From NCBI GenBank assembly GCA_024276825.1, contig JAJRWI010000028.1, positions 1 through 30,717 on the forward strand: DNA of 30,717 nucleotides, given 5' to 3'. This DNA comes from an archaeon (GTDB taxonomy: Archaea > Asgardarchaeota > Thorarchaeia > Thorarchaeales > Thorarchaeaceae). Shown here piece by piece: positions 2,022 to 25,345 of this stretch; position 1 is the stretch's first letter; every line of letters begins with the position of its first letter. Below the pieces are notes generated by a model, which made no database searches, was not told the origin of the DNA, and worked only from the letters and a program-made list of their open reading frames with translations. The position numbers and the translations under genes are program-made.

Positions 2022-3611
2022 ATGCAGGGTGCGACACAAATGAACTCAATTCAGGCCAATATTAGCAAGGTGACTGTATTTCGGAATGGGGCACGCATAA
2101 CTAGGACTGGGGAAATCTCAGCAGATAAGGGACCTGTCAAGGTCATAATTGAAGGCATTACTGAGTATGCTGAGAAGGATAGTGTCAGGGTCACAAGTTC
2201 AGGACCTGTGATGATCACATCATTTGATGTTAGAACACGATCGATCCTAAAGAAACCCAAAGAGGACAGAGAATCACTAGTCAAAGAACTTGACAATCTC
2301 AGACTCAAGGCAAAGGAGATCAAGGGTCAGATAGAGATTGAGCAAGAGCGTCAGTCTAGGATGATTTTTGCAAGTGAGAGTTTTGCAGGCATGTTTGGAG
2401 TTGGGTTCGCTGCTGGAGAGAGTGAAATATCGAGAGTGGACGAGTTAGACTCGACAACTGAAAGGCTGTTGATCGAAACTGCTGATAGGATCATTGCCCT
2501 AAAAAAGGAGCTCAAGGAGATTGAGGACAGGATTAAAATAATCGAAGAGAATGTTCAAGAATTCGAGTCTGAAATCAAGGTCAATGAGGTTCATGATGTA
2601 GAGGTAACTCTTGATGTGAAAGAAGGGGCCAAGATATCTTTAGAGATATCCTATCAGGTTAATGGATGCAGATGGAATCCGAGCTATGATATTGAGGTCT
2701 CGGACAAGGGAACAAAGTTGCGTAGGATTGCAATGATTTTCAATGATACGAGAGAGAGTTGGAATAATGTCAAACTTGTTGTGTCCACATCCTCATCCAA
2801 CACTGTTGAGGCAATTGAACCAACTCCATTCTTTATCAGAGAATATATTCCCAGGCCCCCTCGAAGGATCAAGGCGAAGAGGGCCAAACATGCTGAGGAG
2901 GCACCACCATCACCTGCAATACCAGCTGTGATGACAGAAGTCGAGTATGAACCTGAACCAATGGAGGAATTATTTGCAGATGTCGAAGAATCATTAGGAG
3001 GAATTGCTACATACGAGATTCCAAAGCCAGTGACAATTCCTGATGATGGCGAAGAGCACCCCGTTACACTAATAGAGGAGGAGTTGAATTCCAAAACTCT
3101 CCATTACTGGTACACTGATGAAATGCCTGATGTGGTCGCATATAATCAAATAGAGAATGGATCAGTTGTCATTCTTCCGGGCCCGATGAAGGTGTTTGCA
3201 GGTGAAGAGTTCATTGGCGAAACCCACATTGAGATGGTATCTCCGCGGGAGTCCTTCAAAGCGGGAGTCAGAACAGCTTACGATGTCAAAGCAAAGAAAG
3301 AGCTGATTGAGAAGATTGTTGAGAAGGCAGGTCTCACAAGGGGCAAGATGCGGCGGAAGTACAGGTACAGACTGACAGTAGAAAACTTTGCAAGAGAAGT
3401 GATCTCTATCGAAGTGAATGACAGAATTCCTCATAGTGAGAGTGAAAAAATATCTGTGAAGTTTGACTGGCAGAAACACTTCAAAGAAAAACCTAAACTT
3501 GGAATCCTGAAGTGGCAGCTAGAGATTCAGCCTAGTGAGAAGAAGATAATAGAATATGAGTTTGAAGTTGAGTGGGAGCGCGGAGTTAATTTCACAGTCC
3601 CATTACCATGA
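2022..3611 (+). CDS. DUF4140/DUF4139 (mucoidy inhibitor MuiA-like) protein, paralog 1
   Basis: N-terminal ISKVTVFRNGARITR, long coiled coil, ISYQVNGCRWNPSYDI, NDTRESWNNVKLVVST, VNDRIPHSE, GILKW. Alternative start ATG 2040. No signal peptide. Confidence 0.9.
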   Translation: MQGATQMNSIQANISKVTVFRNGARITRTGEISADKGPVKVIIEGITEYAEKDSVRVTSSGPVMITSFDVRTRSILKKPKEDRESLVKELDNLRLKAKEIKGQIEIEQERQSRMIFASESFAGMFGVGFAAGESEISRVDELDSTTERLLIETADRIIALKKELKEIEDRIKIIEENVQEFESEIKVNEVHDVEVTLDVKEGAKISLEISYQVNGCRWNPSYDIEVSDKGTKLRRIAMIFNDTRESWNNVKLVVSTSSSNTVEAIEPTPFFIREYIPRPPRRIKAKRAKHAEEAPPSPAIPAVMTEVEYEPEPMEELFADVEESLGGIATYEIPKPVTIPDDGEEHPVTLIEEELNSKTLHYWYTDEMPDVVAYNQIENGSVVILPGPMKVFAGEEFIGETHIEMVSPRESFKAGVRTAYDVKAKKELIEKIVEKAGLTRGKMRRKYRYRLTVENFAREVISIEVNDRIPHSESEKISVKFDWQKHFKEKPKLGILKWQLEIQPSEKKIIEYEFEVEWERGVNFTVPLP

Positions 3612-3620
3612 GGTGATAAA

Positions 3621-5165
3621 ATGACAGTAGTGATTGAAGCCAAGATTTCAGAGGTTGTCGTGTTTCGAGATGGTGCTAGGATCACAAGAAGCGGAAAGGT
3701 CGATCTCAAGAAGGGTGAACAGACCGTTATTGTAAAGGGAATCTCGCGCCATGCAGTTCCTGACAGCTTTCGTGTGAGGGGCAAGGGCTCTGCAGTTTTA
3801 AGAACAATTGACATTGAGAAAGAGAGTAAGAAGTTTGAACCCAAGGATGAGCTTAAAGAACTTAGAAGCAGACTAGAGGAATTGCAAGATGAGAGTGAGA
3901 AGCTCAACCATATTATTGAGATTCAAAGGCGAAAGATCAAGCAGCTCAAAGGGATGAGTGAGAAATTTGCTGCAGAGTTCGGCAAATGGTATGCTATTGG
4001 CGAGTCTGAGATTAAGAGATTGATTGAGTTCGATGATGCAATTTCAAGGTTATTGAAGAAGGCCAAAGACACAATCCGTACTACGGAGAAGAGGTTGGAG
4101 GACGTAAGACATGAGATTGAAAATATTACGCGTAACATAACGAGGATTGAGGGCGACATTCGGGTGGTCAGAACCCATTCAGTCAAGATAATGGTGGAAG
4201 TACTTAAGGAGGGCACTGTTCAATTTGACATCACATATCAGGTCAGAAGAGCAAACTGGAAGCCAGTCTATGATATAGACATTGAGCAAGGACATACAAC
4301 ACTAAAGAGGATTGCAATGATAAACAACTCTTCAGCTGAAGACTGGATTGATGTTGCTCTTAAGGTTTCAACTGCAACATCTGTCCCTGTGCAAATAATT
4401 GAGCCAGACCCCATGTATATCTCAATTATTGAAGGCCCAGTGGGATTTGGAGGGGTTTCTGGAGAGCATGTGCCTGTGCGAGGTCTTTATCAGAGTGTTG
4501 ATGATATGGAGATTGACGAGAGTGAAGTGCTTACTTCAAAGGAATTGATTAGTGGTGTGGTAGTCTATGAGATTCCAGGCAGGGTCACCATTCCATTTGA
4601 TGATGAGCCACATCCAATTACTCTGACAAGCGAGGAATTTGAGTCAAAGCCCATCTACTACTGGAATGCTTATACGATGAATGAGGTGGTGCTTCAGAAT
4701 GAGATTACTAATGGGCCATCAGTGCTAATACCCGGAAAGGCCAGAGTCTACGATTCTGGAAGCTTCATGGGTGAGAGCACGATAGGGCTTATTTCACCCA
4801 GAGAAAAGTTCAGGCTTGGAACAAGACTAGCTTATGATGTCAAGGTCAAACGTGAGTTGAACTTGAAGGACACTGACCAATCGGGCATTACTAGGGGCAA
4901 AGTAAAAAGAGAATACGAGTACGCTCTTGAAATCGAGAATTTCGCTCAGGATTCGATTGAAGTCCTTATTGTTGATAGAATTCCATATAGCCAATCTGAG
5001 AAGATTGCTGTTGAATTGAAAGACTCCTCTGTCGAACCTGAAGAGTTTGAGCTTGGAATTCTTAAGTGGCGAGTCGAGATCAATTCGCAAGAAAAGAAGA
5101 TAATCCAATACAAATATTCTGTCGAATGGGAGAAGGAAGTCGAGATAACCCCACCTTTACCATGA
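3621..5165 (+). CDS. DUF4140/DUF4139 (MuiA-like) protein, paralog 2
   Basis: ISEVVVFRDGARITR, coiled coil, ITYQVRRANWKPVYDI, IVDRIPYSQ, GILKW. Starts 9 nt after paralog 1, with a GAGGTGA SD overlapping the upstream stop. Confidence 0.9.
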   Translation: MTVVIEAKISEVVVFRDGARITRSGKVDLKKGEQTVIVKGISRHAVPDSFRVRGKGSAVLRTIDIEKESKKFEPKDELKELRSRLEELQDESEKLNHIIEIQRRKIKQLKGMSEKFAAEFGKWYAIGESEIKRLIEFDDAISRLLKKAKDTIRTTEKRLEDVRHEIENITRNITRIEGDIRVVRTHSVKIMVEVLKEGTVQFDITYQVRRANWKPVYDIDIEQGHTTLKRIAMINNSSAEDWIDVALKVSTATSVPVQIIEPDPMYISIIEGPVGFGGVSGEHVPVRGLYQSVDDMEIDESEVLTSKELISGVVVYEIPGRVTIPFDDEPHPITLTSEEFESKPIYYWNAYTMNEVVLQNEITNGPSVLIPGKARVYDSGSFMGESTIGLISPREKFRLGTRLAYDVKVKRELNLKDTDQSGITRGKVKREYEYALEIENFAQDSIEVLIVDRIPYSQSEKIAVELKDSSVEPEEFELGILKWRVEINSQEKKIIQYKYSVEWEKEVEITPPLP

Positions 5166-6551: not shown

Positions 6552-6698
6552 TTTTACCCCACCTTCCGTTGTCGAAGTAGGACAAATAACCTTCTGTCAA
6601 CACAGTTTTTTGACCTTTAATTAAACATGCAAAAAACAATTAGTTTATTCTGCCAGTATTATTGTAAGTGGAAATTCATAGTACAGGAAGCGATTGAA

Positions 6699-7016
6699 AT
6701 GGCAAAAATAAGTCCGTTTGTGAAGTTACTAAGAGGAGAGTATGAACTAACAGTAATCCTCCTCTTGACAAGACTTCGTGGGAGAGCAAGAGCTGATGAG
6801 ATTATCAAGAAGGGAAAGGAAACCAAGACATTGCCAGCCCTAAATGGTGCAAGAGTGGCACAGGCAAGGAAATTCTTGTTGAAGAATGAGTTGATCCACA
6901 TTAGAAAAGAAGGCAAGGAGATAATTCATATTCTGACTAAGAAGGGCCAGAAACTGGGAAAAATGCTCAATGCAATTGCAGACTTCATTGTAAAGGATCT
7001 GAAATGGGAGAGGTAG
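6699..7016 (+). CDS. Winged-helix DNA-binding protein (MarR/HxlR/ArsR-like fold)
   Basis: Basic 105-aa protein ending in a wing plus helix (LLKNELIHIRKEGKEIIHILTKKGQKL). ATG 6699 is preferred over 6627 because the extension looks like promoter sequence. Confidence 0.7.
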   Translation: MAKISPFVKLLRGEYELTVILLLTRLRGRARADEIIKKGKETKTLPALNGARVAQARKFLLKNELIHIRKEGKEIIHILTKKGQKLGKMLNAIADFIVKDLKWER

Positions 7017-7390: not shown

Positions 7391-9313
7391 ATGTCCTATG
7401 TTTATATGCGAGCTTTGGAAACCGCACCTGAAAGATATGATAAGGGAATTGGTCTGCTCGGTTGGGGCCAGCTTGATAAAATCAGAATCCAGATTGCTGA
7501 TGAAATAGCATCGGTTGCCAGCAAAGTTCTTGAGATTGGTGTTGGAACTGGCACACAAGCATTATTGCTAGCCAAACGAGGGCTTAATGTTACGGGTATC
7601 GACCATTCAAGTGCTATGTTGGCAATTGCACAGAAAAAGCTAGATCAATTGCGGGAGAGTGATCCAACAAATACAGAGTTAATAAATCGTATTACGCTGA
7701 AACAGAAGGCAGCAGTGCAGCTCGATGAGTTTCCTCCAGAGTCATTTGATGTAGTCACTGCCACACTTGTGTTTTCTGAGCTCTGGGATTCTGAGCAGAA
7801 ATATGTTCTTGCTAATAGCTATCGATTGCTTAAACCCGGTGGTCTTCTTGTCTTGGCCGACGAGGTAATTCCCGCCAGCCGTGTTAAGCGACTATTACAT
7901 TGGATAATTTCAGCACCATTGAAAGCATTTACTTACCTTCTGACTCAGACTTCAACAAGACCCGTTCGAAATCTTAAGCAAATGATTGTTTCAGCAGGTT
8001 TTGAGATTGTCCGTATTGATTGCTATCAGCTTGATTCATTTCAGGTCATCATTGCAAAGAAACCCGAAATATCCATTCATTCCAAGGCTGGCATTGTAGC
8101 CGAAACCATCTCCCCGCCCAATGACGGATTGATTGCAAAGGTATGGCAAACAGCTGCACGAATGATTAGACATCCGACAGAGATTGGATTGCTCCCAGTG
8201 AATGATCCCACCTCTGATTCTCCTGTGTTGTGTACCTGCAATTTCAAGCTCACTGTGAGTCGACTATACAGCTTTCTGAAAGACAATCAGGTTGATGCGT
8301 GGATCTTGGTCGCGCCGACCGATGGAATAAATGTCTGGTGTGCTGCTTGTGGTGGTGATTTCAATGCTGGGTCTGTAATAACTGCGATCAAGATCTCTGG
8401 CTTGAGCGAAAAGGTCACGCATAGAACTATTATCCTTCCACAACTAGCTGCACCTGGAGTTGACCCAAACGAGGTCCGGAAGATCACTGGTTGGAACTGT
8501 GTCTGGGGGCCAGTTCATTTTGATGGACTCATAGATTTTCTACATGACTATCCGAAGTCAATCAAGAACAAGTCTGAACAACAAAGAGCTGTCATGTTCA
8601 AACTCCCATTTCGTCTTGAGATTGGTTCTGCACTTGCCTTTCCAATGTTATTGATTCTTGGAGTTCCCATTTCTCTCATCCTGTGGTTTTATCAATTGAC
8701 CTTCTGGATCGTCCCAATGTTGCTATGCATCTTGATTTACATATACGGACTGTTTGTCTTTTGGCCACACATTCCCGCTTTTCATGGTACAAGAAAAGTA
8801 GCAATCTGGACTGGACTTGTTTTCACTGGCTTAGTAATACTATCTTGGTTCTCTACCGATGTTATGAATCTTTACAGCCCAGCAATGATACCATTCACTG
8901 GCATTCTTGCATCTTTGAACCTTTGGCCTCTCTATATATTGACTGGTCTTTTATCAGTGGTCATCGTGTACGATGCTGATGGTCTGACCCCGAATCTAAG
9001 ATCATCACTACTGGCTCGGAGTTGGAACAAAGGCAAACTCAAGGTTATGGAGCGATGGGGTGTTTCATATGACCTTGCACCCTATGGCAAAATCTCTCTA
9101 AATTCTGAAATATGTAATAGCTGTGGTATCTGTGTGGATGTATGTCCAATGATAGTTCCTCAATTCAACATGGATAGTAAGAAGGTTATTCTTGTTCATC
9201 CCGAGATATGTGTGAACTGCCGAGCATGTGTGCTCAGATGCCCTGCAAGGGCATTATATCTCGAACCTGAAACTGAGGCTGCGCGACTGGCATTGGAACG
9301 ACTCCAGCAATAG
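7391..9313 (+). CDS. Fusion of class I SAM methyltransferase, HgcA/CdhD-like corrinoid domain, TM helices and 2x[4Fe-4S] ferredoxin (HgcAB-like)
   Basis: Methyltransferase motifs VLEIGVGTG, FDVV, LLKPGGLLVLAD. HgcA-like motifs SPVLCTCNFKLT, AWILV, GINVWCAACGG, HRTIILPQLAAPGV, WGPV. About 4-5 TM helices. Ferredoxin motifs CNSCGICVDVCP and CVNCRACVLRCP. Confidence 0.92.
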   Translation: MSYVYMRALETAPERYDKGIGLLGWGQLDKIRIQIADEIASVASKVLEIGVGTGTQALLLAKRGLNVTGIDHSSAMLAIAQKKLDQLRESDPTNTELINRITLKQKAAVQLDEFPPESFDVVTATLVFSELWDSEQKYVLANSYRLLKPGGLLVLADEVIPASRVKRLLHWIISAPLKAFTYLLTQTSTRPVRNLKQMIVSAGFEIVRIDCYQLDSFQVIIAKKPEISIHSKAGIVAETISPPNDGLIAKVWQTAARMIRHPTEIGLLPVNDPTSDSPVLCTCNFKLTVSRLYSFLKDNQVDAWILVAPTDGINVWCAACGGDFNAGSVITAIKISGLSEKVTHRTIILPQLAAPGVDPNEVRKITGWNCVWGPVHFDGLIDFLHDYPKSIKNKSEQQRAVMFKLPFRLEIGSALAFPMLLILGVPISLILWFYQLTFWIVPMLLCILIYIYGLFVFWPHIPAFHGTRKVAIWTGLVFTGLVILSWFSTDVMNLYSPAMIPFTGILASLNLWPLYILTGLLSVVIVYDADGLTPNLRSSLLARSWNKGKLKVMERWGVSYDLAPYGKISLNSEICNSCGICVDVCPMIVPQFNMDSKKVILVHPEICVNCRACVLRCPARALYLEPETEAARLALERLQQ

Positions 9314-9664: not shown

Positions 9665-10678
<1,014 letters not shown>

Positions 10679-13363: not shown

Positions 13364-16300
13364 TCATGCTGAAGATCGTCTTCTATATATGATCACAACG
13401 ATAATCACGATAACTGCAGAAGCACCTATTACCATAGATATCGCAAATGTGAACTGACCACCAAGGAAGTTTCCAATTCCTGGACCCACAGTTGTGTTTG
13501 TTGTTGGAGTTTCAGTGATTGGTGTGGTTGTGGTTGTTGTAGGAGTTGATCCGAGTTCATTTACAATGACCAAGACAATGTCCGTCATTGAATTACCACC
13601 GATGTCGAACACTTCAAGCATATAGACATAGCCGCCAGCAAGGTGGTTGTCGACATTGATATAGAAGCTCTCGCCTGAGGCATTCCAGAAACCTGCTTTC
13701 ATAATTACTCCATCGCAGGTTATCTCGTATCTATAGGGATGGTCATCGTAAGCCGTCCAATTTATGGCATGGCCCGTTTCACCCTCTGTATATGTGACAT
13801 CTGGCGGTGAGCAGATGGTTGGAATAGTGGCATCCATCACACTGACAATAACCGTGTCGCTAACAATGTTTCCACCAATGTCGTTCAATGAAATGGTGAA
13901 GTTATAAATGCCCACACTCAGTACGTCCACCGAAATACTGACATTCCAACTCATTTCAGTCCATATCTCACTGAGAATGAGCTCTCCATCTCTGTATATT
14001 TGATACGAAACTGGATGGAGGTCATAGAATGTCCAAGTAATGAAATATCCCGTGTCACTCTCGTTATATGTGATGTCCATGGGAGAGTCTACGATTGGAG
14101 GAGTGCCATCATACACATCTACAAGAACAGAATGGATGCTTGTATGATCAAGAACATCCCATGCACGAATGCAGTAATTATAATTACCAAGATCATGACT
14201 ATCAATTGAGATCTCAATCCATTGATCTGTTGAATTCAGAAACCCACTGTGAATTATCGTGCCATTCAGAAATATCTCATACCCTGCAGGGTTCGCATCC
14301 ATCACATGCCAGCTAATTGTGTTCCCTGTTGTTGTTTCAGCATATGACCCGTCATCTGGGCCCCCAATGATTGGACTTGAATCATCAACAATGAATACAA
14401 GACTGACTGCAGCTGTATTCCCTGATTCATCACTTGCATTAATATTGAATACATGCTCACCTTCAATGCTTGGCAATGTGAGTGTGTATGGCTCGACAAG
14501 GACCGTCCAGTTGCCTTGATCAACTCGAATCTGAACAGTTGTCAGATGGATGTCAGTGATTGATAAGTAGACATTGGTCCCGCTCTCATGCACCGTAGCA
14601 TTGGAAGGTGATATGAGAACTATTTTTGGAATGGTGTCATCCACAACAAACACATATTTCATGTCCACATAGTTGTCTGCCTCATCAGTTGCATTGACCT
14701 GAAGGAACCATGTTCCATCACCTGAAGGCACAGGAATACTATACGGACTCGAAACCACTCCCCAGAAACTCGAGTTCCAGACATATCCAACAACCACCGA
14801 GTTTGCATCATTCACATCAATGTCAATCACATGGCTACTTCTGATGACTGAATTATTCGCTGGTGCAATCAGACTGATTGTTGGGGCCGTATCGTCAACA
14901 GTCCAAACAAATAGAATTTGATTCACATTATTGACGACATCTTCTGCTCTTACTCTAAGAATATGCTCACCGTCGCCACTGGGTATTGTTGTCGTGTATG
15001 GTGTGGTTATTCCCACCCAAGTGCCACTGTCCCATTGGACCTCAACAAGATTGAGATTAGCATCAGTGACATTCAGAAACACATTGATTCCTCCATGCTG
15101 AACAGTTGAATTGTTGGGGCTCACTAACTCGATGTAAGGTGCAGAATCATCAACCTCAAACTGAAACATCTGGACCTTATTATTGCCTGCAATATCCACA
15201 GCACTCACGTACAATGTATGAAGTCCATCGCCTGATGGTAGTGTCGTGTCATATGGGCTGGCCCACACCTGCCAACTATCGGAGTCCCAATGAAACATCA
15301 CTTGTTGCAAGTGTGAGTCCGATATTGATACATCTATGTCAGTCCCTGATTGTTGTATGGTGTTGTTCAAGGGGGCAACAAGAATGATTGATGGAGTTGT
15401 ATCATCAGTGATGAACTCAAATAGGGCAAATCTATGGTTGCCAGCCTGATCAACTGCATCAATCTCTAGAGCATGATTGCCATCGCCAGTCTGAAACTCG
15501 CTATTAAATGGGCTCAGAAAGAGAGTCCATACGCCTCCATCCCAGCGATAATAAGCAACATCCAGATTCTCATCATTGATGTCAATGTCAATGGTGTATC
15601 CACTCTGGTGAACCGACTCATTTGCAGGCGAAACCAATGTTATTACTGGAAGAGTATCATCAGTAGTGAAGTGATAATCTACCAGTTCATAGTTTCCAAC
15701 AAGATCGGTGGCGTTTATAGATAGCACATGTATTCCATCGCCCGCTGGCAGATATGTATCGTAGGGGGCGTTCCATATCGCCCATGAGTTGCTGTCCCAT
15801 TTATACATCACAAAATCAAGGTCGGTGTCTTGAACTGAAACATTGATGAGTGTGCCACTCGCACAGATCGAGTTGTTTGTAGGACTATTTAGGATGATTA
15901 ATGGTCTTGAGTCATCAGTTGTGAACACATACTTTTCGAGATTCCAATTACCAACGCTGTCAGTGGCATTCACATAGAGCACATGCTGGCCATCGCCAGT
16001 TGGTAATGATGTGTCATATGGGTCTGGAAATGTTGCCCATGCTTCACTGTCCCAATGGTAGACTGCACTATCAAGATTGGGGTCATCAATTGTCAAGTCA
16101 ATAATGGTTCCACTGTGATGAATGGTGTTATTAGTTGGTCCCAGCAGAGTGATTGCAGGTGCGGTATCATCGGTTTCAAAGACACATCTGGAGAGTCTGA
16201 AGTTTCCTGCATAATCTGTAGCATTAATGTATAGAGTATGCAACCCATCGCCTGCTGGTATGGTTGTTTCGTATGATGCATTCCACACAACCCAACTGTC

Positions 16301-19300
16301 TGTGTTCCAGTGATATTCAACCGAGAGTAGATGATCATCATTTACTTGAACTAAAACAGTTACTCCACTGTTTTGCACTGTGTTGTTCGCAGGAGTCAGC
16401 AGTATTATGTCTGGAGCAGTGTCATCTATTGTGAATGAGTATGTCTGATGATTCCAGTTTCCTGCGTTATCGCAAGAATACACATTCAGAGTGCTTAGCC
16501 CCTCACTGAGTCCAGCAGTACTGATATCCCATGGACTGTTCAATGTGTTGTTCGAGCCCCCATTCCAGTTGTACAATGCAGAACTCAGTGTGTTGGTATC
16601 AAAAATATCAAGATCTATAATGGTGCCAGACTGGATGATAGAACCATCAGTGGGCTCATAAAGTGTGATGATTGGAGCAGTGTCGTCAACGATGAATGTG
16701 AATGAGCTGGTTCTCGTGTTTCCAGCATCATCATATGCGTATGCATGAAGAACATGAGTCCCCTCAGATAATCCACTCACTTGGATATCATAGGGGCTTG
16801 AGAATGATATATTGGACCCACTGTCCCATGCATATTGTGCACTATTGACGCTATTAGAATCAGTAATGTCTAGGTCTATTATAGATCCCGATCGAATTTC
16901 GGAACCATCAGCTGGCGAACTTAGGATAATAGTTGGGGCGGTATCATCAATTATGAATGTGAATATTGATGTCTGGATGTTTCCAGCAGCATCCTCAGCG
17001 GTAATGTGCAATATATGTGATCCTTCACCAAGCCCTGATGTGTCAATATCGTAGGGACTATTGAGAGTCTGATTAATACCGCCATCCCAACTATACAAGG
17101 ATTGCTGCAAGGTGTTGTCATCCAATATTGAAAGGTCTATGACTGTACCTGATTGTATCTCCGCATTGTCTGCTGGACTGTTCAATGTGATAGTTGGAGC
17201 GATATCATCTATTATGAATGTGTATGTGCTCTTTGCCCAATTACCAGCCAAGTCCTCCGCATAAATGTGAAGTAAATGACTGCCTTCTGAAAGACCCTGT
17301 GTATCCACATCGTAGGGGCTACTCATAGTCTGGTTGGCATTGCCATCCCAGTTGTACACTACTTGATTGATGGTATTATTATCAGATATTGAGAGGTCTA
17401 TGATTACGCCTGATTGAATCTCTGAACCATCTCCCGGACTGTTTAGAATAATGGATGGTGCTGTGTCATCAATAGTGAATGTATACGTGACATATCTAAG
17501 ATTCCCCGCGTTGTCCTCTGCATAGACTCGGAGTGAGTGGTCTCCCTCATCGAGTCCTGCAGTGCTGATATCATAGGGACTAACAAGTGTCTGATTGACA
17601 CTCCCATCCCAGTTATATGTGACCTGTGAAATTGTATTAGCATCATTTACAGATAGATCAATGAGTGTTCCTGATTTTATCTCAGAACCATCAGCAGGAC
17701 TGTTCAGTGTGATTGTTGGTGGTGTGTCATCAATCACATAGGTATATGTGGCCTTTGCCCAATTATCAGCTGCATCTCTTGCATAGACAGAGAGCGTGTG
17801 TGATCCCTCATTCAATGTTGAAGTGTCAATGTCATAGGGTACAACGAGTGTGTTGTTTTGCCCACTATCCCAAGCGTATAGGACTTCAGACAATGTGTTA
17901 ATTTCATTGACATCAAGATCAATGTTTGTGCCAGACTGGATTTCAGAGCCATTATTTGGTGTGTTTAGAACTATGTTGGGTGCGGTGTCATCGATTGTGA
18001 AATGAAATGTTGCACCCTGCCAGTTTCCAGCCTCATCTCGTGCATATGCATAAAGCACATGGGCCCCCTCTGAAAGCCCTGCTGTTGAAACATCGTAAGG
18101 ACTGGCTAGAGATGAGTTAGCATTGGTGTCCCATGCATAGAGCACTTGATTCAATGTGTTGGACTCGGTGATATCAAGGTCTATAGTCACACCTGAATTG
18201 ATCTCCGCGTTGTCAATTGGATTCACAAGAGTGATAGTTGGTGCTGTATCATCAATGATGAATGAATATATGGCTCCTTGCCAATTACCTGCTACATCCT
18301 GTGCATACACATGCAGTGTGTGAGTGCCCTCGTTTAGATTAGTCGTATCAATATCAAATGGGCTTGATAAGGAGATATTGGAACTGCCGTCCCAATTATA
18401 CATGACTTGTGATAGCGTGTTGTCATCACTAACTGTAAGATCCACTATTGTTCCGCTCTGAATTTCTGCTCCATCAGTGGGACTGTTCAACACAATGGTT
18501 GGGGGTGTGTCATCAATGATGAAGCTGAACGCGCTGTATCGCCAATTACCAGCCTGATCCCTTGAATAAACATTGATAGTATGAATCCCTTCAGACAACC
18601 CTGATGTGCTCACATCATATGGACTGTTCAGAGTCGTATTGCTGGAACCATCCCAATTGTAGAGTGTTTGATATAGGGTATTCACATCGCTTATTGACAG
18701 ATCGATTTCAGTCCCTGACTTGATCTCTGCTCCATTAGCAGGACTGTTCAACACGACAGTTGGAGCAGTGTCATCAATAATGAACGAGTATATTGCACTC
18801 TGCCAATTCCCAGCATTATCACGCGCATATACATTAAGCTGACGAGTTCCTTCCAGAATGCCTGCGGTGTCAACATCATACGGCGTATTGATCGTTGAGT
18901 TTGCAGCACCATCCCAGTTATAAATCACTGTGTATATTGTATTAGTATCGTTGATTGAGAGATCTATCGTGGTTCCTGATTTTATCTCAGATCCGTCTGC
19001 AGGAGTGTTCAATGTAATAGTTGGTGGTGCGTTGTCAAACACGAAGGTGTAATTCACAATTACCTCATTTCCAGCCATATCGGTCGCATGAACAGTGACA
19101 TAATGCTGACCCTCACTAATTGCACTCGTATCAATATTATAGGGACTGGCTAAAGCATAGCTAGAATTTGACATGCCATCCCAGTAATAATATGTCTGGT
19201 TGAGTGTATTAGAATCTGAAATGTCGAGATCAATGAGAGTCGCTGATTGTATCTCCGAACCATCACCGGGACTATTTAGAGTCACAACCGGCGCAGTGTC

Positions 19301-22300
19301 ATCAATTATGAAAGCAAAAGTTGCTGATTGCCAATTTCCTGCATTGTCTCTTGAGTAGACATGCAGTGTGTGTGAGCCCTCATTCAATCCTGTTGTGTTG
19401 ACACGATAGGGACTTGGAAGTGTGTTGTTTGTTCCATCATCCCATGCATAAAGAACCTGATATATCGTGTTGTTGTCATTGACCTGAAGGTCAATCATTG
19501 TACCTGATTGTATTTCTGAACCATCATTAAGATTTGCAAGCGATATAGAAGGCGGTGTGTTGTCAATAATAAAATCAAATGAAACATTTCTGCCATTTCC
19601 TGCGGCATCCTCGGCATAGACATACAGTCTGTGAATGCCCTCACTTAGTTCACTTGTGCTTACATCATAGGGACTACCAAGACTGGTGCTACTGCCATTG
19701 TCCCAGTTATATGTGACCAGATTTAGGGTATTCTCCTCAATTATATCTAGATCTATGATGATTCCTGACTGAATCTCCGCACCATTTGCAGGGCTATTGA
19801 GAATGACTCGCGGAGCAGTATCATCGATGATGAATGAATAAATTGCACTTTGCTGATTTCCTGCCTGATCTAGGGCAAACACATAGAGGGTGTGTGTTCC
19901 ATTTGACAATCCCGTAGTGTCTATGTCATATGGGCTGGCTAATGTTGAATTTGATCCTCCATCCCAGTTATATAGCACCTGACTGAGTGTGTTTGAGTCA
20001 GTCACCGCAAGATCAATAATAGTTCCAGGCTGTATCTCAGAGCCATTTGCAGGACTGTTCAACACAATATTTGGCGAAGTATCATCAATTATGAAGGAGT
20101 ATATTGCCTTCGCCCAATTTCCAGCTTGATCTCTGGCATAGACATTAAGAGTATGGCTCCCCTCTGAGAGTCCTGTTGTACTCGCATCATATGGACTGCT
20201 CAAAGTGGAGTTCGAACCACTGTCCCATGAATAAAGCACTTCAGCTATTGTGTTGCTATCTGATACATCAAGATCAATATCTGTTCCTGACTGAATCTCT
20301 TCACCATCACTCGGACTGTTCAGTGTGATAGTAGGTGCTGTTGAATCAATGATGAATGTGAAACTCACGGACTGCCAGTTTCCAGCGGCATCACTGGAGT
20401 AGACATAGAGGACATGTGTTCCATCGCCCAGTCCAGCAGTACTTACATCATACGGGTTGTTTAGTGTTTGATTCGCATTGCCATCCCAATTGAACAATGT
20501 TGTTGATAGACTGTTTGAATCACTCACACTCAAATCAATGTCAGTGCCAGGTATAATCTCTGAGTTTTCAGCTGGTGAATTAAGAACGATTGTCGGAGCG
20601 GTGTCATCTATTGTAAAACTGAATATTGCTGTCTGCCAGTTGCCTGCCTGATCTTGAGCGTATACATAGAGTGAATGTGTTCCCTCTGAGAGCCCTGTTG
20701 TACTAACATCATATGGACTGCTCAGCGATTGATTTGTTCCACCATCCCAATTGAACAATGCCTGCGATATTCCGTTTATATCGGTTATACTAAGATCAAT
20801 GGCTGTACCTGACTGGATTTCAGAGCCATCACCAGGACTGTTTAATATGATTGTTGGACTAGTATCATCCGTTGTAAATACATAGCTGGCAAATGTTGAA
20901 TGTCCGGCACTATCGGTCGCGTTGATATATAGAATATGATCTCCATCACCTATTGGCACAGATGTGTCATATGGTGATGCGAGAACCGCCCAAGCGTCAG
21001 AATCCCAGTGATAGTAAACAGTACTGAGGTCTCCATCCACATCGGTGATATTGAGGTCTACAGTAGTGCCGCTCTTGACCACAGTTCCATTTGCTGGTGA
21101 GATCAGACTGACAGTTGGTGGTGAACCTGTCACATCTTCAACGGTCCAAACGTAGACTTTGTACTGATAATTGCCTGCTTGATCAGTAGCATTGACGTAT
21201 AGAGTATGTACCCCAGTGTCCAATGGAATCTGTGTGTCATATGGCGAACTCATCATCGCCCAAGAATTAGAATCCCATTTGTAATAGACTGTGCTTAGAT
21301 GAGAGTCGCTAATGTCAAGGTCCACAGTAGTTCCTCCAGTCTGAACGGTGTTATTCTGGGGACTTACCAATGAGACCGTAGGTGCTGTGTCATCCACCGT
21401 AAATGTGAATGAAGAGTACTGATAGTTACCCGCAAGGTCGGTTGCATTAACATAGAGTGTGTGGAGACCATCACCACTTGGCGTTAACGTGTCGAATGGT
21501 GAAGTCAAGTTTGCCCAAGCATCAGAGTCCCAATGATATCTGACATAATCAAGATGAACATCAGAAATATCGAGATCAATCGTTACTCCACTCTTTAGAA
21601 CCGAACCATCAGCTGGGCTTACGAGGATTACAGATGGTGCTGTGTCATCGCAAATGAAACTTCTTGTAGATGTGTTGGTGTTGCCTGCCAGATCATAAGC
21701 AATGACGTATAGTGTGTGATTTCCATCAGCTGTGGGGACTGTGGTTTCGAAGGGTTCAGTCCAATTGGCCCATATTCCAGTGTCCCATTTGTACTGACTG
21801 TAGTCAAAATTGGCATCTGATATATCGACATCAACCGTAGTACCACTCTTTACAATGGCATTGTTTTCAGGGCTCACAAAGACCAAGGATGGATTTGTAC
21901 TGTCAGCATGCAGAACTATTCTATCAACAGTGATCTGCCTTGCAGAATCAACAGCAATCACTCGCACGGTATGGTCGCCATCAAGCAAAGACATTGGTAT
22001 TGATGAATTCGTCACACGAGCATGATACTGGCCATCTACATAGACCTCTGAGTATGTGACTGAGTTATCGTCTGATGCGTTCCATGACAGTGTGAATGGT
22101 GAGCTGACATATGCATTACTATTCGGTTGATTTATCGAAATATCGGGATATTGGTCTATTCCCAAGTAATTCAGCACTTTGCTTAATGCATCATTCCTGT
22201 CGTCTGAACTCGATATCGCCTCAAAATTGAAACCAAAGTAGACCACCTTGTAAGTTCCTGAATAACGTACAGCAGCACCAGGAGTTCCTGTCACATCATA

Positions 22301-25300
22301 CGTAAGACATTGTGAGCCCCCGTTAATGGGCGATACCTCATCAGGATATCCATTGTTTCCTCCTCCGTCTCCACCACCAACTGCATAATTGACTCCATCA
22401 AATATTGGATCACTTGCGACCCCACTTACAGCTGCACCATTGGTGTCATCGGCAATATAATCACCGTGAAGATAGGTCTGAAGCCAAGTTTCCCACGCGT
22501 TCTGATTTGAATCATAGCCAATGTCCTGACCACTGATGAACATTTTACCTCCGTTGTCAAGAAATGTTCCAATGTTGGTCCTATCAGTCGTAGAGAGAGT
22601 TGTGCTATAATCGTCGGATGTGAACCAGATCACAATATCATATGCCATTAAAGTGGTCGAGGATGGTGAACCATCAGAACTCACAGTCCATACATCAAAT
22701 CCAGTACCTTCATAAAAGCCATTGGCCTCCAGAGCGGCCTTGTAGTATTTCTCATATGATGCTCCATTATCGTCATCGACCAGCAACATCCGTGGACTTC
22801 CGGTCTTGACATAAACATTTGATGAGTCATAGACTGTGCCTCCAGAACCCACTGCTTTGGCAATAAACGTTACATTACCTGCCTCCAAACATGATACATT
22901 CATTGAATATTCATAATAGCCTGTACCGCTGTTATAGTGATCCGTAATGTCAATCCATGTGTCATTCCAGAATCGCAGGCCGACGGAAGAAAGTCCAGTG
23001 CCACTTGCTGAAACCTGCACTGTGAAGGCGCCTGTAAGCAGTTGGTCTTCTGAAGGTGTTACCAAGCTTACGGTTGGTGTTGAAGTTCCTGATGAGCTTG
23101 AAAACGTGAATAAGCCTCCATTCCCCGTTACATATTTTACAACAATGTAGTATGTGCCGCTTGAGGTTGGTGTGTATGTGATATGCTCAGATGCACCAGT
23201 TGCAAAGTTGATTGACTTAGAGATGAGAATTGGCTCGCCATAAGTATCATAGTTTCCGCTATAGAGGAATAGATCATAGTCAGCACCATCGGGCACATCA
23301 AGATTGAATGTGTATGTTGTTCCTGCAGTTAGAGTCACATGACGAGCCCATGCTTTTCTTCCATAATCGCCTGCCTCGATCGTTGCACTCTCTGCAGTTC
23401 CAATTGTATGGGCAAATAGATATGCCTCAAGTGCAGCATCTGCATTCACACGACCGTAACCCTCGACAGTGTCCTTTGCTCCTCTATTTATCGCGCTTAT
23501 TTCATAGGAAGTCATCATCAATAACTGCTTGATTGTGTAAGGCCTTGAAGTGCTATCATACACCCAGTTTTGTGATCCCCCCATTGCGTCCACAAGTAGT
23601 GCTGATAGTCCTGCCACATATGGGCATGACATGGATGTGCCTTGCATTATCGCCATATCATTAGATTGTTGCTCAGCAAAAGCTCCATCTGCCTCCTGGT
23701 CATTGGAGTCCACCGAGAGTATTGCTCCTTGAGATGAAACTCCACCCGGTGCTACAAGGTCCGGCTTCTGTGTGTTCTGATAACCCGGCCCTTCTGAAGA
23801 ATAGGATGTGATCTGGTTGTGGTCGCCCGTCGCCCCAACACAGATGACACCATCAACATGACCTGGCGTGTTAATATTGTTTGCGCCCTGCCCATCATTC
23901 CCTGCTGAAACGCAGGTCACAATTCCCTTTGAAACCAGATTGGCGGTAGCAGTATCAACAGAAGCGACAGTGCTTGAGAACCCAAGACTCATTGAGGCCA
24001 CTGTGATATGATACTTCTCTGCATTTGCGACAACCCAGTCAAGACCATTCACTAGGTCGGTGGATGATCCGGAACCTGTATTGTCAAACACCTTGACACT
24101 GACAAGTTTCGTGTCAGGTGCAACTCCACTGAATCTAAGATGTCCATCAGTGGGAGTGGAATATGGATACTTGTTAATGCCCGTCGCTCGAAACTCTTTT
24201 GGTGAAACGCTTCCCGGGAATGACACATGAATCCACACGGAATAGATTCCAATCTCGTTCTCATTCAATGTATAAGTGAGGTCTCTCTGCGAATTTGAGT
24301 TGGCAACCTGATCAACAATTGTGCCATTGGGGCTCTTTAGAATCACATCGTTACTACCGACATTTATATCGCCACTCCAAAGAGTTGTGACATCGATAGT
24401 GCCAGCAGCCTTGACTTCTATATAATAGCTAAAATAGCCTGAAACCGCCTGAGTCGTTGAATACTTGATTCCCCAAGTGCTGCCAATTCGATTTCCATCT
24501 ATTGTTGAATTATACTCCTTACCTGCAGCAATGCCTGCACAATGACTCCCATGACTGTTCTGATCTTCGGGAGACGTGGAACCATCTGCGGTAGCATCAT
24601 ACCACCCCACGATTTTTGCATTTGCAAAGTCCATATCGCCATAGGGTGATAGCATAGTATGGGTGTCATCAATGCCTGTATCCAGAATCACAATTGAACT
24701 GTTCCAATCGCCAGTATATCCAAGAGTGTCCCATACATAGGTTCGTACATTGGTGAGAAGTGTGCTGACATCTGAGTATCTTCTCATTGGCTGGTCGCGC
24801 TCGACGAGCTCGACCTCTCCAAGTTGTGATATCTGCGGGATCTTATCATATTGTATTCTTCCAGCAAATCCGTAGAATGCATGTTCGAATCGATTGGTAA
24901 CGGTCCCGCCATTAGCAATAAACGATTCAATCGCAATGTCCAACATTCCTTCTTCAACGGCGATTATCAGTTCCACGGGGTCTGACGATGTTCCATTCAA
25001 ACTCTTTTCAAGCATGATGGTTTCAAGTTCGTCGTGAATCTTGTTTCCATCACTGTCCACTGATGCAAAGATCTTTGCCTTCTGTTCTTCAAAATTAATA
25101 GTTGAAGTCGGTTCATAAATTCTTACAGGCTCAAGTTTGGGTTCAGTGACAAATTTGGGTGTTTCCTGATTCATTGAAACTGGTTGACCTTGAACCTTAG
25201 TCAGGTCATTAGTCAACCAAGGACCATTTTCAAGAATACTCGCTTCATTATTCGCATGAATGAATGATGTTGGGTTTGGTTGGACCATTAAAATTGTCAA

Positions 25301-25345
25301 AAAAACAAAGCACACAATAAGCATTCTCTTTCTAAGTAGACTCAT
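13364..25345 (-). CDS. Giant (3993 aa) membrane-anchored S8 subtilase with Ig-like repeat stalk
   Basis: Signal peptide MSLLRKRMLIVCFVFLTIL and an I9-like prodomain. Catalytic D222 (ILDTGID), H265 (HGSHCAG), N483 (SAGNDG), S571 (GTSMSCP). Then PPC-like, Ig and GATase-like domains, 32 repeats, a Thr/Pro linker, a TM helix and a YRRRSSA tail. GAGGT SD 7 nt upstream. Confidence 0.95.
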   Translation of the reverse strand: MSLLRKRMLIVCFVFLTILMVQPNPTSFIHANNEASILENGPWLTNDLTKVQGQPVSMNQETPKFVTEPKLEPVRIYEPTSTINFEEQKAKIFASVDSDGNKIHDELETIMLEKSLNGTSSDPVELIIAVEEGMLDIAIESFIANGGTVTNRFEHAFYGFAGRIQYDKIPQISQLGEVELVERDQPMRRYSDVSTLLTNVRTYVWDTLGYTGDWNSSIVILDTGIDDTHTMLSPYGDMDFANAKIVGWYDATADGSTSPEDQNSHGSHCAGIAAGKEYNSTIDGNRIGSTWGIKYSTTQAVSGYFSYYIEVKAAGTIDVTTLWSGDINVGSNDVILKSPNGTIVDQVANSNSQRDLTYTLNENEIGIYSVWIHVSFPGSVSPKEFRATGINKYPYSTPTDGHLRFSGVAPDTKLVSVKVFDNTGSGSSTDLVNGLDWVVANAEKYHITVASMSLGFSSTVASVDTATANLVSKGIVTCVSAGNDGQGANNINTPGHVDGVICVGATGDHNQITSYSSEGPGYQNTQKPDLVAPGGVSSQGAILSVDSNDQEADGAFAEQQSNDMAIMQGTSMSCPYVAGLSALLVDAMGGSQNWVYDSTSRPYTIKQLLMMTSYEISAINRGAKDTVEGYGRVNADAALEAYLFAHTIGTAESATIEAGDYGRKAWARHVTLTAGTTYTFNLDVPDGADYDLFLYSGNYDTYGEPILISKSINFATGASEHITYTPTSSGTYYIVVKYVTGNGGLFTFSSSSGTSTPTVSLVTPSEDQLLTGAFTVQVSASGTGLSSVGLRFWNDTWIDITDHYNSGTGYYEYSMNVSCLEAGNVTFIAKAVGSGGTVYDSSNVYVKTGSPRMLLVDDDNGASYEKYYKAALEANGFYEGTGFDVWTVSSDGSPSSTTLMAYDIVIWFTSDDYSTTLSTTDRTNIGTFLDNGGKMFISGQDIGYDSNQNAWETWLQTYLHGDYIADDTNGAAVSGVASDPIFDGVNYAVGGGDGGGNNGYPDEVSPINGGSQCLTYDVTGTPGAAVRYSGTYKVVYFGFNFEAISSSDDRNDALSKVLNYLGIDQYPDISINQPNSNAYVSSPFTLSWNASDDNSVTYSEVYVDGQYHARVTNSSIPMSLLDGDHTVRVIAVDSARQITVDRIVLHADSTNPSLVFVSPENNAIVKSGTTVDVDISDANFDYSQYKWDTGIWANWTEPFETTVPTADGNHTLYVIAYDLAGNTNTSTRSFICDDTAPSVILVSPADGSVLKSGVTIDLDISDVHLDYVRYHWDSDAWANLTSPFDTLTPSGDGLHTLYVNATDLAGNYQYSSFTFTVDDTAPTVSLVSPQNNTVQTGGTTVDLDISDSHLSTVYYKWDSNSWAMMSSPYDTQIPLDTGVHTLYVNATDQAGNYQYKVYVWTVEDVTGSPPTVSLISPANGTVVKSGTTVDLNITDVDGDLSTVYYHWDSDAWAVLASPYDTSVPIGDGDHILYINATDSAGHSTFASYVFTTDDTSPTIILNSPGDGSEIQSGTAIDLSITDINGISQALFNWDGGTNQSLSSPYDVSTTGLSEGTHSLYVYAQDQAGNWQTAIFSFTIDDTAPTIVLNSPAENSEIIPGTDIDLSVSDSNSLSTTLFNWDGNANQTLNNPYDVSTAGLGDGTHVLYVYSSDAAGNWQSVSFTFIIDSTAPTITLNSPSDGEEIQSGTDIDLDVSDSNTIAEVLYSWDSGSNSTLSSPYDASTTGLSEGSHTLNVYARDQAGNWAKAIYSFIIDDTSPNIVLNSPANGSEIQPGTIIDLAVTDSNTLSQVLYNWDGGSNSTLASPYDIDTTGLSNGTHTLYVFALDQAGNQQSAIYSFIIDDTAPRVILNSPANGAEIQSGIIIDLDIIEENTLNLVTYNWDNGSSTSLGSPYDVSTSELSEGIHRLYVYAEDAAGNGRNVSFDFIIDNTPPSISLANLNDGSEIQSGTMIDLQVNDNNTIYQVLYAWDDGTNNTLPSPYRVNTTGLNEGSHTLHVYSRDNAGNWQSATFAFIIDDTAPVVTLNSPGDGSEIQSATLIDLDISDSNTLNQTYYYWDGMSNSSYALASPYNIDTSAISEGQHYVTVHATDMAGNEVIVNYTFVFDNAPPTITLNTPADGSEIKSGTTIDLSINDTNTIYTVIYNWDGAANSTINTPYDVDTAGILEGTRQLNVYARDNAGNWQSAIYSFIIDDTAPTVVLNSPANGAEIKSGTEIDLSISDVNTLYQTLYNWDGSSNTTLNSPYDVSTSGLSEGIHTINVYSRDQAGNWRYSAFSFIIDDTPPTIVLNSPTDGAEIQSGTIVDLTVSDDNTLSQVMYNWDGSSNISLSSPFDIDTTNLNEGTHTLHVYAQDVAGNWQGAIYSFIIDDTAPTITLVNPIDNAEINSGVTIDLDITESNTLNQVLYAWDTNANSSLASPYDVSTAGLSEGAHVLYAYARDEAGNWQGATFHFTIDDTAPNIVLNTPNNGSEIQSGTNIDLDVNEINTLSEVLYAWDSGQNNTLVVPYDIDTSTLNEGSHTLSVYARDAADNWAKATYTYVIDDTPPTITLNSPADGSEIKSGTLIDLSVNDANTISQVTYNWDGSVNQTLVSPYDISTAGLDEGDHSLRVYAEDNAGNLRYVTYTFTIDDTAPSIILNSPGDGSEIQSGVIIDLSISDNNTINQVVYNWDGNANQTMSSPYDVDTQGLSEGSHLLHIYAEDLAGNWAKSTYTFIIDDIAPTITLNSPADNAEIQSGTVIDLSILDDNTLQQSLYSWDGGINQTLNSPYDIDTSGLGEGSHILHITAEDAAGNIQTSIFTFIIDDTAPTIILSSPADGSEIRSGSIIDLDITDSNSVNSAQYAWDSGSNISFSSPYDIQVSGLSEGTHVLHAYAYDDAGNTRTSSFTFIVDDTAPIITLYEPTDGSIIQSGTIIDLDIFDTNTLSSALYNWNGGSNNTLNSPWDISTAGLSEGLSTLNVYSCDNAGNWNHQTYSFTIDDTAPDIILLTPANNTVQNSGVTVLVQVNDDHLLSVEYHWNTDSWVVWNASYETTIPAGDGLHTLYINATDYAGNFRLSRCVFETDDTAPAITLLGPTNNTIHHSGTIIDLTIDDPNLDSAVYHWDSEAWATFPDPYDTSLPTGDGQHVLYVNATDSVGNWNLEKYVFTTDDSRPLIILNSPTNNSICASGTLINVSVQDTDLDFVMYKWDSNSWAIWNAPYDTYLPAGDGIHVLSINATDLVGNYELVDYHFTTDDTLPVITLVSPANESVHQSGYTIDIDINDENLDVAYYRWDGGVWTLFLSPFNSEFQTGDGNHALEIDAVDQAGNHRFALFEFITDDTTPSIILVAPLNNTIQQSGTDIDVSISDSHLQQVMFHWDSDSWQVWASPYDTTLPSGDGLHTLYVSAVDIAGNNKVQMFQFEVDDSAPYIELVSPNNSTVQHGGINVFLNVTDANLNLVEVQWDSGTWVGITTPYTTTIPSGDGEHILRVRAEDVVNNVNQILFVWTVDDTAPTISLIAPANNSVIRSSHVIDIDVNDANSVVVGYVWNSSFWGVVSSPYSIPVPSGDGTWFLQVNATDEADNYVDMKYVFVVDDTIPKIVLISPSNATVHESGTNVYLSITDIHLTTVQIRVDQGNWTVLVEPYTLTLPSIEGEHVFNINASDESGNTAAVSLVFIVDDSSPIIGGPDDGSYAETTTGNTISWHVMDANPAGYEIFLNGTIIHSGFLNSTDQWIEISIDSHDLGNYNYCIRAWDVLDHTSIHSVLVDVYDGTPPIVDSPMDITYNESDTGYFITWTFYDLHPVSYQIYRDGELILSEIWTEMSWNVSISVDVLSVGIYNFTISLNDIGGNIVSDTVIVSVMDATIPTICSPPDVTYTEGETGHAINWTAYDDHPYRYEITCDGVIMKAGFWNASGESFYINVDNHLAGGYVYMLEVFDIGGNSMTDIVLVIVNELGSTPTTTTTTPITETPTTNTTVGPGIGNFLGGQFTFAISMVIGASAVIVIIVVIIYRRRSSA
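13556..21904 (-). repeat. 32 tandem Ig-like coding repeats in three classes (4A-17B-8A-3C)
   Basis: Counted by hand from the DDTAP...WD...PYD...DxAGN unit. The B block (20869-16427) is 1481 aa = 17x87+2. The second A block (16426-14387) is 680 aa = 8x85. Confidence 0.93.

Follow-up and report, generated by a model that had tools for sequence, protein, structure and literature searches.

A CpaM methyltransferase domain fused to an HgcAB-like protein in a Thorarchaeaceae genome: one-chain form of a catalogued two-gene module

Described relatives and architecture of the locus

Purified HgcAB, the mercury methylase formed by HgcA and HgcB (NF040863 and NF040864), is reduced to Co(I) via its clusters and methylated by SAM (KD 33 uM, k 0.15/s) to Cys-ligated CH3-Co(III), the Cys-on ligation of cobalt having been demonstrated for HgcA (PMC11588087). 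The cap helix of HgcA carries the motif N(V/I)WCA(A/G)GK (PMC5893877) and its N-terminus a CU/CC pair (10.1101/2022.07.06.499078), while in HgcB Cys73 is essential and the C-terminal Cys pair nearly so (PMC7305189). A related family, the HgcAB-like fusion protein (NF043039; the ‘fused HgcAB’ of Podar 2015, Gilmour 2018 and Lin 2023), joins corrinoid, membrane and dicluster ferredoxin domains in one chain; Asgard clades of it have been published (Lin et al., 10.1101/2022.11.21.517362), and the carriers P. furiosus and M. methylutens made no methylmercury in culture (PMC4646819, PMC5893877). CpaM, the corrinoid protein-associated methyltransferase (NF043040, a hypothetical equivalog), is a free protein of ~220 aa, and its association with the corrinoid protein is curated in NCBIfam. 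[quoted passage not shown]

The window analysed here is the whole 30,717-nucleotide stretch of contig JAJRWI010000028.1, from a genome that is 98% complete. As the initial annotation had described, one uninterrupted ORF contains a SAM methyltransferase, a corrinoid domain, transmembrane helices and two cluster motifs, arranged as follows.

7391..9313, + strand: ORF P0001, CpaM::HgcAB-like single-chain fusion, 640 aa, stop-free (30 full-length homologues)
7391..8062, + strand: CpaM class I SAM methyltransferase domain, aa 1-224, UbiE/Coq5/CmoA-like fold (NF043040, VIA)
7532..7552, + strand: predicted SAM-binding motif I, aa 48-54 (conservation of G50 and G52)
7601-7603, + strand: acidic residue D71 of the methyltransferase domain (conservation)
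7775..7864, + strand: CpaM-specific S129-E130 and D157-E158 (with M6, E10 and Y16), 91-100% conserved
7880..7945, + strand: hydrophobic/amphipathic CpaM helix, aa 164-185 (AF2 helix H164-185; P176, L177 and T181 conserved)
8063..8140, + strand: linker, aa 225-250, partly of low pLDDT and Cys-free (sequence, AF2 model)
8141..8548, + strand: predicted corrinoid-binding domain, aa 251-386, CFeSP/HgcA fold (PF03599; superposition on 2h9a_A)
8330..8359, + strand: cap helix N314-V-W-C317-A-A-C-G-G-D, with the C317 codon at 8339-8341
8603..8986, + strand: membrane domain of four predicted helices, aa 405-532 (hydropathy, AF2, conservation)
9086..9268, + strand: predicted 2x[4Fe-4S] ferredoxin (Pfam Fer4 families)
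9113-9148 (C575-P586) and 9209-9244 (C607-P618), + strand: CxxCxxCxxxCP motifs (sequence)
9269..9310, + strand: C-terminal helix, Cys-free, with no CC tail (sequence; HgcB alignment)

The gene stands alone, with ~370 bp of non-coding DNA on its upstream side and ~350 bp on its downstream side, its upstream neighbour being a possible winged-helix ORF and its downstream neighbour encoding GAPDH. Within the chain, the Pfam CdhD match covers aa 264-382, the membrane domain ends in a conserved D528-x-x-G531-x-T533-P534 motif, and the spacing between K224 and R257 amounts to 29-41 residues in the fused forms. The cap motif N314-VW-C317-AA and the two CxxCxxCxxxCP motifs from C575 and C607, the latter as in HgcB, were found where the annotation had placed them; the cap helix then continues CGGD and not GK, and after C617 there is no further Cys in the chain. 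HgcA is described with five C-terminal membrane helices, and four are predicted here.

The predicted ligands of SAM, B12 and the Fe-S clusters are all nearly invariant among 85 systems and 98 CpaM representatives. G50, G52 and D71 occur in 85/85 systems and in 99-100% of the CpaM representatives, and the domain, in which both of these elements are intact, is predicted from its sequence to bind SAM and transfer its methyl group. C317 is likewise present in 85/85 systems and is the predicted cobalt ligand by analogy with HgcA, and T282, N284, P350-Q351, A354, G356 and G373-P374 of the corrinoid domain are nearly invariant. We considered the cap ‘CxxC’ as a functional motif and rejected it, since C320 is found in only 48/85 systems and varies inside the fused clade. 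The CpaM residues S129-E130 and D157-E158 probably form an acceptor or docking face, and the helix at aa 164-185 probably makes a membrane or partner contact.

Family membership, homologues and descent

We carried out the profile searches and the architecture census that the initial annotation had suggested. The N-terminal domain, for which that annotation had proposed a resemblance to CpaM, scores 247.8 bits against the curated NF043040 cut-off of 180 (aa 2-224, full profile), and it lies in the same ORF as the corrinoid protein with which CpaM is associated. The remainder passes NF043039 with 333.2 bits against 285 (aa 249-623, profile 2-350 of 350; E 2.6e-99, far above chance) and has that family's corrinoid, membrane and dicluster ferredoxin domains in one chain. 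HgcA (NF040863, 132.6 bits vs 275), HgcB (NF040864, 44 bits vs 99) and UbiE/MenG (TIGR01934, 58.9 bits vs 158) all fail. An arsenite methyltransferase (ArsM) was also considered for the N-terminal domain and rejected: ArsM-type models reach 37-49 bits, far under their cut-offs, and against the catalytic cysteines expected of ArsM the domain has a single, unconserved Cys (C211).

The alignment-based AlphaFold2 model of the whole chain has a pLDDT of 85 and a pTM of 0.84 (44 for the pLDDT of a single-sequence model of the C-terminal part). In it, aa 251-386 superpose on CFeSP 2h9a_A with Z 18.7 and an rmsd of 1.6 A over 127 residues, and the structures closest to the N-terminal domain are those of CmoA and Coq5 (VIA Z 23.6 and 22.4). 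CFeSP itself, of which the host carries its own copy on another contig, differs from the ORF in being soluble, in lacking the cap Cys (PMC7305189), and in being loaded by a TIM-barrel methyltransferase from methyl-pterin. When the two parts were folded as separate chains, the score was 0.39 against 0.00 for the best of 3 controls, with runs agreeing in at least 86% of contacts and a partner pLDDT of at least 77. In the benchmark of this score the mark was reached by 58/80 solved pairs and 2/110 mismatched pairs, although just 7 of the solved pairs, against both of the mismatches, did so with a score of 0.60 or less, and the parts here are halves of one gene; the modelling weakly suggests a contact between CpaM and the HgcAB-like part. 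Inter-domain covariation reached a maximum z of 6.2 vs 4.3-4.9 in shuffled alignments (125 rows, Neff 86), a value confounded by clades that we set aside as evidence.

Full-length homologues number 30, with 49-60% identity and 98-100% coverage of the chain. They were drawn from assemblies in ENA, JGI, NCBI and Logan; all the named ones are Asgard archaea (Thor-, Hel-, Hod- and Promethearchaeota), and several of these triple fusions are labelled ‘HgcAB-like fusion protein’ by NCBI. The majority of relatives are split, which could favour an assembly or read-through artefact, the outcome that the initial annotation had named as refuting its proposal. The 30 independent full-length homologues make such an artefact untenable, and its probability is negligible, P0001 lying within a 27-row, all-fused clade with 100% support in both domain trees. 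The closest relative, P0024, seemed to be naturally split, but the break proved to be a frameshift near residue 425.

In the census (301 Asgard genomes, with 60 places above the NF043039 cut-off and coordinates compared with those of a CpaM search), CpaM was fused to the HgcAB-like gene in 13 cases and directly upstream in 43, that is 56/60, and 30 mapped loci agree; the other four comprise one contig edge, one partial CpaM on another contig and two left aside. These counts bear out the annotation's view that CpaM usually has an adjacent gene to itself, and its Rosetta-stone logic was right. The pairing recurs, with gene order kept, in the non-Asgard loci examined, including a Dehalococcoidales genome and Mesorhizobium, and the single CpaM in a 401-genome sample from the phylum of the Dehalococcoidales genome was a fusion with a corrinoid domain. 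Of the best 150 CpaM clusters (50% identity), a corrinoid domain is present in 22, of which 8 have the ferredoxin as well, the named fused members including Anaerolineae, Ranarchaeia and Hodarchaeales. Within the host family, seven triple fusions were above cut-off among 77 genomes, and the gene is a patchy accessory trait there. A plasmid search gave no match, a search of genome contigs with the single protein gave two loci, and a metagenome scan matched mostly generic methyltransferases.

With the two families already catalogued together with their association, and the pair split elsewhere, the ORF is the one-chain form of a known two-gene module and not a new system, so that the annotation's term ‘undescribed system’ is an overstatement; the Asgard fused HgcAB clades had also been published (10.1101/2022.11.21.517362). 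The ORF shares with NF043039 proteins the corrinoid-membrane-ferredoxin chain, the cap Cys without GK and the absent HgcB tail, and differs in having CpaM in the same polypeptide, as 13/60 Asgard copies do. With CpaM it shares the conserved residues and the place upstream of the corrinoid domain, whereas CpaM itself is free. In the titles and abstract openings that we surveyed there was no description of CpaM with a corrinoid protein or of a methyltransferase fused to an HgcAB-like protein (one Asgard hgcA study fell outside this scope).

The domains appear to have diverged together (Mantel r of methyltransferase vs corrinoid tree distances 0.93 for 59 type-1 systems and 0.90 for the 27 split ones), for which shared inheritance of a cassette alone would suffice. 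The states fused and free require 10 changes on a 118-row CpaM tree, with at least 4 of them forced by starred branches, and fusion or fission has therefore recurred. In a tree that lacked reference sequences from P. furiosus and M. methylutens, P0001 branches with the fused HgcAB-like proteins, apart from HgcA, which forms a separate clade with 100% support; its placement among CpaM-partnered lineages has support of 82-86, which is unstarred, and the root is uncertain. A second Asgard type (type 2), a CpaM-like::HgcA-like paralogue with a copy in the same genome (G000:C82:1-1302), also has a methyltransferase fused to corrinoid and membrane domains. Unlike the ORF, it has the cap NVWCAARG and a separate ferredoxin with GCGC and often CC, and it branches nearer to HgcA than the ORF clade does; ArsR lies in 7/15 loci of this sister clade and Acr3-like genes in 4/15.

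Mercury, methyl transfer and alternative readings

HgcA/HgcB and the ORF have homologous corrinoid and membrane domains, the Cys cap helix, 2x[4Fe-4S] and SAM as the likely donor in common. The presence of the cap Cys, the membrane domain and both clusters, and 37% identity to a canonical HgcA over 248 residues, would accord with a genuine mercury methylase that has its own SAM domain, and Podar et al. pointed out that a negative culture test leaves inability unproven. We nevertheless regard this reading as quite improbable. Both mercury-methylase models fail, an AU test rejected grouping the P0001 clade with HgcA (p-AU 0.0005), and MeHg was not formed by two cultured carriers of the family. 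The canonical HgcAB locus examined also differs in having no CpaM neighbour. At residue level, the cap reads NVWCAACG, with the Cys kept and GK absent; the position of HgcB Cys73 aligns to ~A630; the C-terminal cysteines are absent; and the N-terminal CU/CC of HgcA finds no counterpart in the Cys-free linker. As the mercury-handling thiols of HgcA and HgcB are thus missing, the acceptor is probably other than Hg and the ORF is probably not a mercury methylase. The literature background given by the initial annotation, with SAM as donor (PMC11588087) and Hg-negative carriers of fused hgcAB (PMC4646819, PMC5893877), was confirmed.

Our preferred reading, which we hold at a probability of about one half, is a membrane-anchored, self-contained methyl relay serving stress defence. 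Low-potential electrons passing through the two [4Fe-4S] clusters would reduce the cobamide to Co(I), as demonstrated for HgcAB; the CpaM domain would bind SAM and offer its methyl group to Co(I), so that SAH is released and CH3-Co(III) forms, Cys317 being its axial ligand; and the methyl group would leave as a radical or carbanion to a non-mercury soft electrophile that SAM does not methylate directly, an acceptor that would come in by way of the membrane or in a small-molecule complex. A SAM-to-Co(I) step by CpaM is plausible by analogy with HgcAB. HgcAB is, however, methylated by SAM with no CpaM-type domain, so that the need for this domain is not established, and the closest structures of CpaM are small-molecule enzymes, which counts against the relay. 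No class I Rossmann enzyme is known to methylate a corrinoid.

The serious rival is a reduce-then-methylate scheme, an unlikely reading by our estimate but the first among the alternatives, in which the corrinoid/2x[4Fe-4S] part acts as a reductase that frees a thiol, selenol, reduced metalloid or quinol and CpaM methylates the product from SAM, with no methyl-cobalt. Known reductases such as reductive dehalogenases and QueG use B12 together with two [4Fe-4S] clusters. Enzymes of the UbiE/Coq5/CmoA/PmtA type are the nearest to CpaM, whose acidic face is conserved, fusion and co-divergence would suit sequential steps equally, and HgcAB has been reported to dechlorinate CCl4 (preprint 10.64898/2026.04.26.720869). 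Against this scheme stand the invariant Cys cap helix, which in HgcA stabilises methyl-Co(III) (PMC11588087), the descent of the corrinoid domain from the methyl carrier CFeSP, and the tendency of Co(I) beside bound SAM towards methylation.

Two other readings were weighed. CpaM could serve for reactivation only, as the AdoMet domain does in methionine synthase, rescuing oxidised Co(II) through reductive methylation while another donor, such as methyl-H4MPT or a methylated substrate, is used in turnover; reactivation classically pairs SAM with a source of electrons, and the host has a Wood-Ljungdahl cdh cluster. We consider this improbable, as a second methyltransferase or donor-binding partner is conserved near no locus, the fused ferredoxin could re-reduce Co without SAM, and Me-THF was rejected as HgcAB donor. 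Slightly less probable still is a module that gives CH3-Co(III) in trans to radical SAM enzymes, as a split class B radical SAM methylase. The Mesorhizobium pair, with both members above cut-offs, shares its cluster with three radical SAM genes. The pair is flanked by AmmeMemoRadiSam enzymes both in that cluster and, within a single Asgard family, at 9 loci, and ahead of another triple fusion lies a CUAEP-tail enzyme; yet the mapped loci of the ORF and its 27-member clade have no radical SAM gene nearby, and the neighbours elsewhere come from differing radical SAM families, genes that are common in anaerobes.

Acceptor, genomic context and significance

Within the relay, a toxic thiophilic metal(loid) or chalcogen of the As, Sb, Se or Te type, made harmless or exportable, is a candidate acceptor at a little better than even odds, and an organic electrophile or radical (quinone-like, a xenobiotic or a natural-product intermediate) at a little under even odds; we therefore slightly prefer detoxification. 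Across 48 loci there was no conserved neighbour beyond lineage synteny, with ArsR near 0/48 and Acr3 near 1, and CopA-type ATPases lay within ~5 kb of 2/51 loci. Hints of metal stress come from these ATPases, from the ArsR and Acr3-like genes of the type-2 clade, from the copper response of P. furiosus described below and from the ArsL-related CUAEP radical SAM gene that precedes another triple fusion, and hints of an organic substrate from F420-dependent oxidoreductases flanking the cassette in three lineages and from the radical-SAM biosynthetic cluster in Mesorhizobium. None of these hints applies at this ORF's own locus. For the quinone route, the 98%-complete genome contained no MqnA/D and no above-cut-off MenB; a UbiE/MenG above cut-off was found on another contig (C70), together with four UbiA-family genes in the same genome. 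A search for CobS returned none.

PF0729 of P. furiosus is probably AAL80853, judging by GenBank numbering. The latter is the fused HgcAB of this species (PMC7438021). Next after copZ (PF0727), which encodes the copper chaperone, come PF0728, for a class I SAM methyltransferase, and PF0729, and these two rose by log2 5.0 and log2 3.4, respectively, on copper shock (10.1101/2020.08.14.251413). PF0728-PF0729 is a probable CpaM/HgcAB-like pair, and its copper induction may be read-through from copZ.

A wider and more doubtful proposal, which we advance tentatively, is that CpaM acts on protein-bound cobalt and that the HgcAB superfamily would have its complete and probably original form in the three-part chain, a membrane-bound protein donating a methyl radical or carbanion to non-mercury electrophiles, the mercury methylase having arisen via CpaM loss and thiol gain. 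If CpaM does have protein-bound cobalt as its substrate, this would be a role without known precedent for a class I Rossmann methyltransferase. In surveys of mercury methylation, Asgard genes of this kind should not count as Hg-methylation potential. The single-chain ORF is a convenient one-gene test construct, and with donor site, cobalt and electron wire in one gene, domain-deletion and substrate-screen experiments become simple; the gain is limited because the module also exists as an adjacent pair in many genomes, probably including that of cultured P. furiosus. The fusion bears on the native purpose of HgcAB and of its non-mercury-methylating sister family, as it indicates that the latter operates together with a SAM domain dedicated to it.

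Genes surrounding the fusion in the window

Among the other genes encoded in the window (coordinates, strand) are:
2022-5165, +: DUF4140/DUF4139 (TIGR02231) paralogues in tandem
6627-7016, +: 129-aa ORF with a faint winged-helix match (E 0.12)
9668-10678, +: type I GAPDH (TIGR01534 passed)
13364-25345, -: 3993-aa subtilase with numerous Ig-like repeats

The 129-aa ORF, which lies 374 bp upstream of the triple fusion (P0001), may encode a regulator. The GAPDH is of the bacterial type, encoded here in an Asgard genome.

Type-2 fusions and split pairs in Asgard genomes

A second methyltransferase::corrinoid fusion, of type 2, was detected in the host genome:
G000:C82:1-1302, -: type-2 fusion with the cap motif NVWCAARG, incomplete as the contig end cuts the gene

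This gene lies no more than about 8 kb from the cdh (Wood-Ljungdahl) cluster and, as judged by eye, adjoins apparent cystathionine gamma-lyase and cysteine synthase genes. In type-2 systems (L107, L108, L110, L112-L114, L116, L118) the ferredoxin is a protein of its own that contains GCGC and frequently a terminal CC, and the 15 type-2 loci include seven with ArsR neighbours and four with Acr3-like neighbours. Additional Asgard split pairs (L104-L106, L111, L120) consist of a CpaM-like gene and a corrinoid-membrane gene, the latter with the cap NVWCGSRGG or NVWCS(S/A)AGG and without a fused ferredoxin.

Closest relative and radical SAM contexts

Three further loci were noted:
L099:8001-9952: closest relative (79% DNA identity), called as two genes
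L205:6133-9908: radical SAM gene with a CUAEP/CCAEP tail, then a triple fusion directly downstream
L122:3101-13734: Mesorhizobium cluster holding CpaM and an HgcAB-like::DUF2817 gene

The closest relative carries a frameshift near residue 425, reflecting either an assembly error or a pseudogene. The L205 radical SAM gene is ArsL-related and passes the NF040546 cut-off, and the tail of the adjacent triple fusion bears Cys. Alongside these two genes, the Mesorhizobium cluster encodes a hydrolase, a ThiF/hydrolase fusion and radical SAM proteins of the SPASM, HemN-like and AmmeMemoRadiSam types; it possibly represents a natural-product pathway employing the CpaM/HgcAB-like module.
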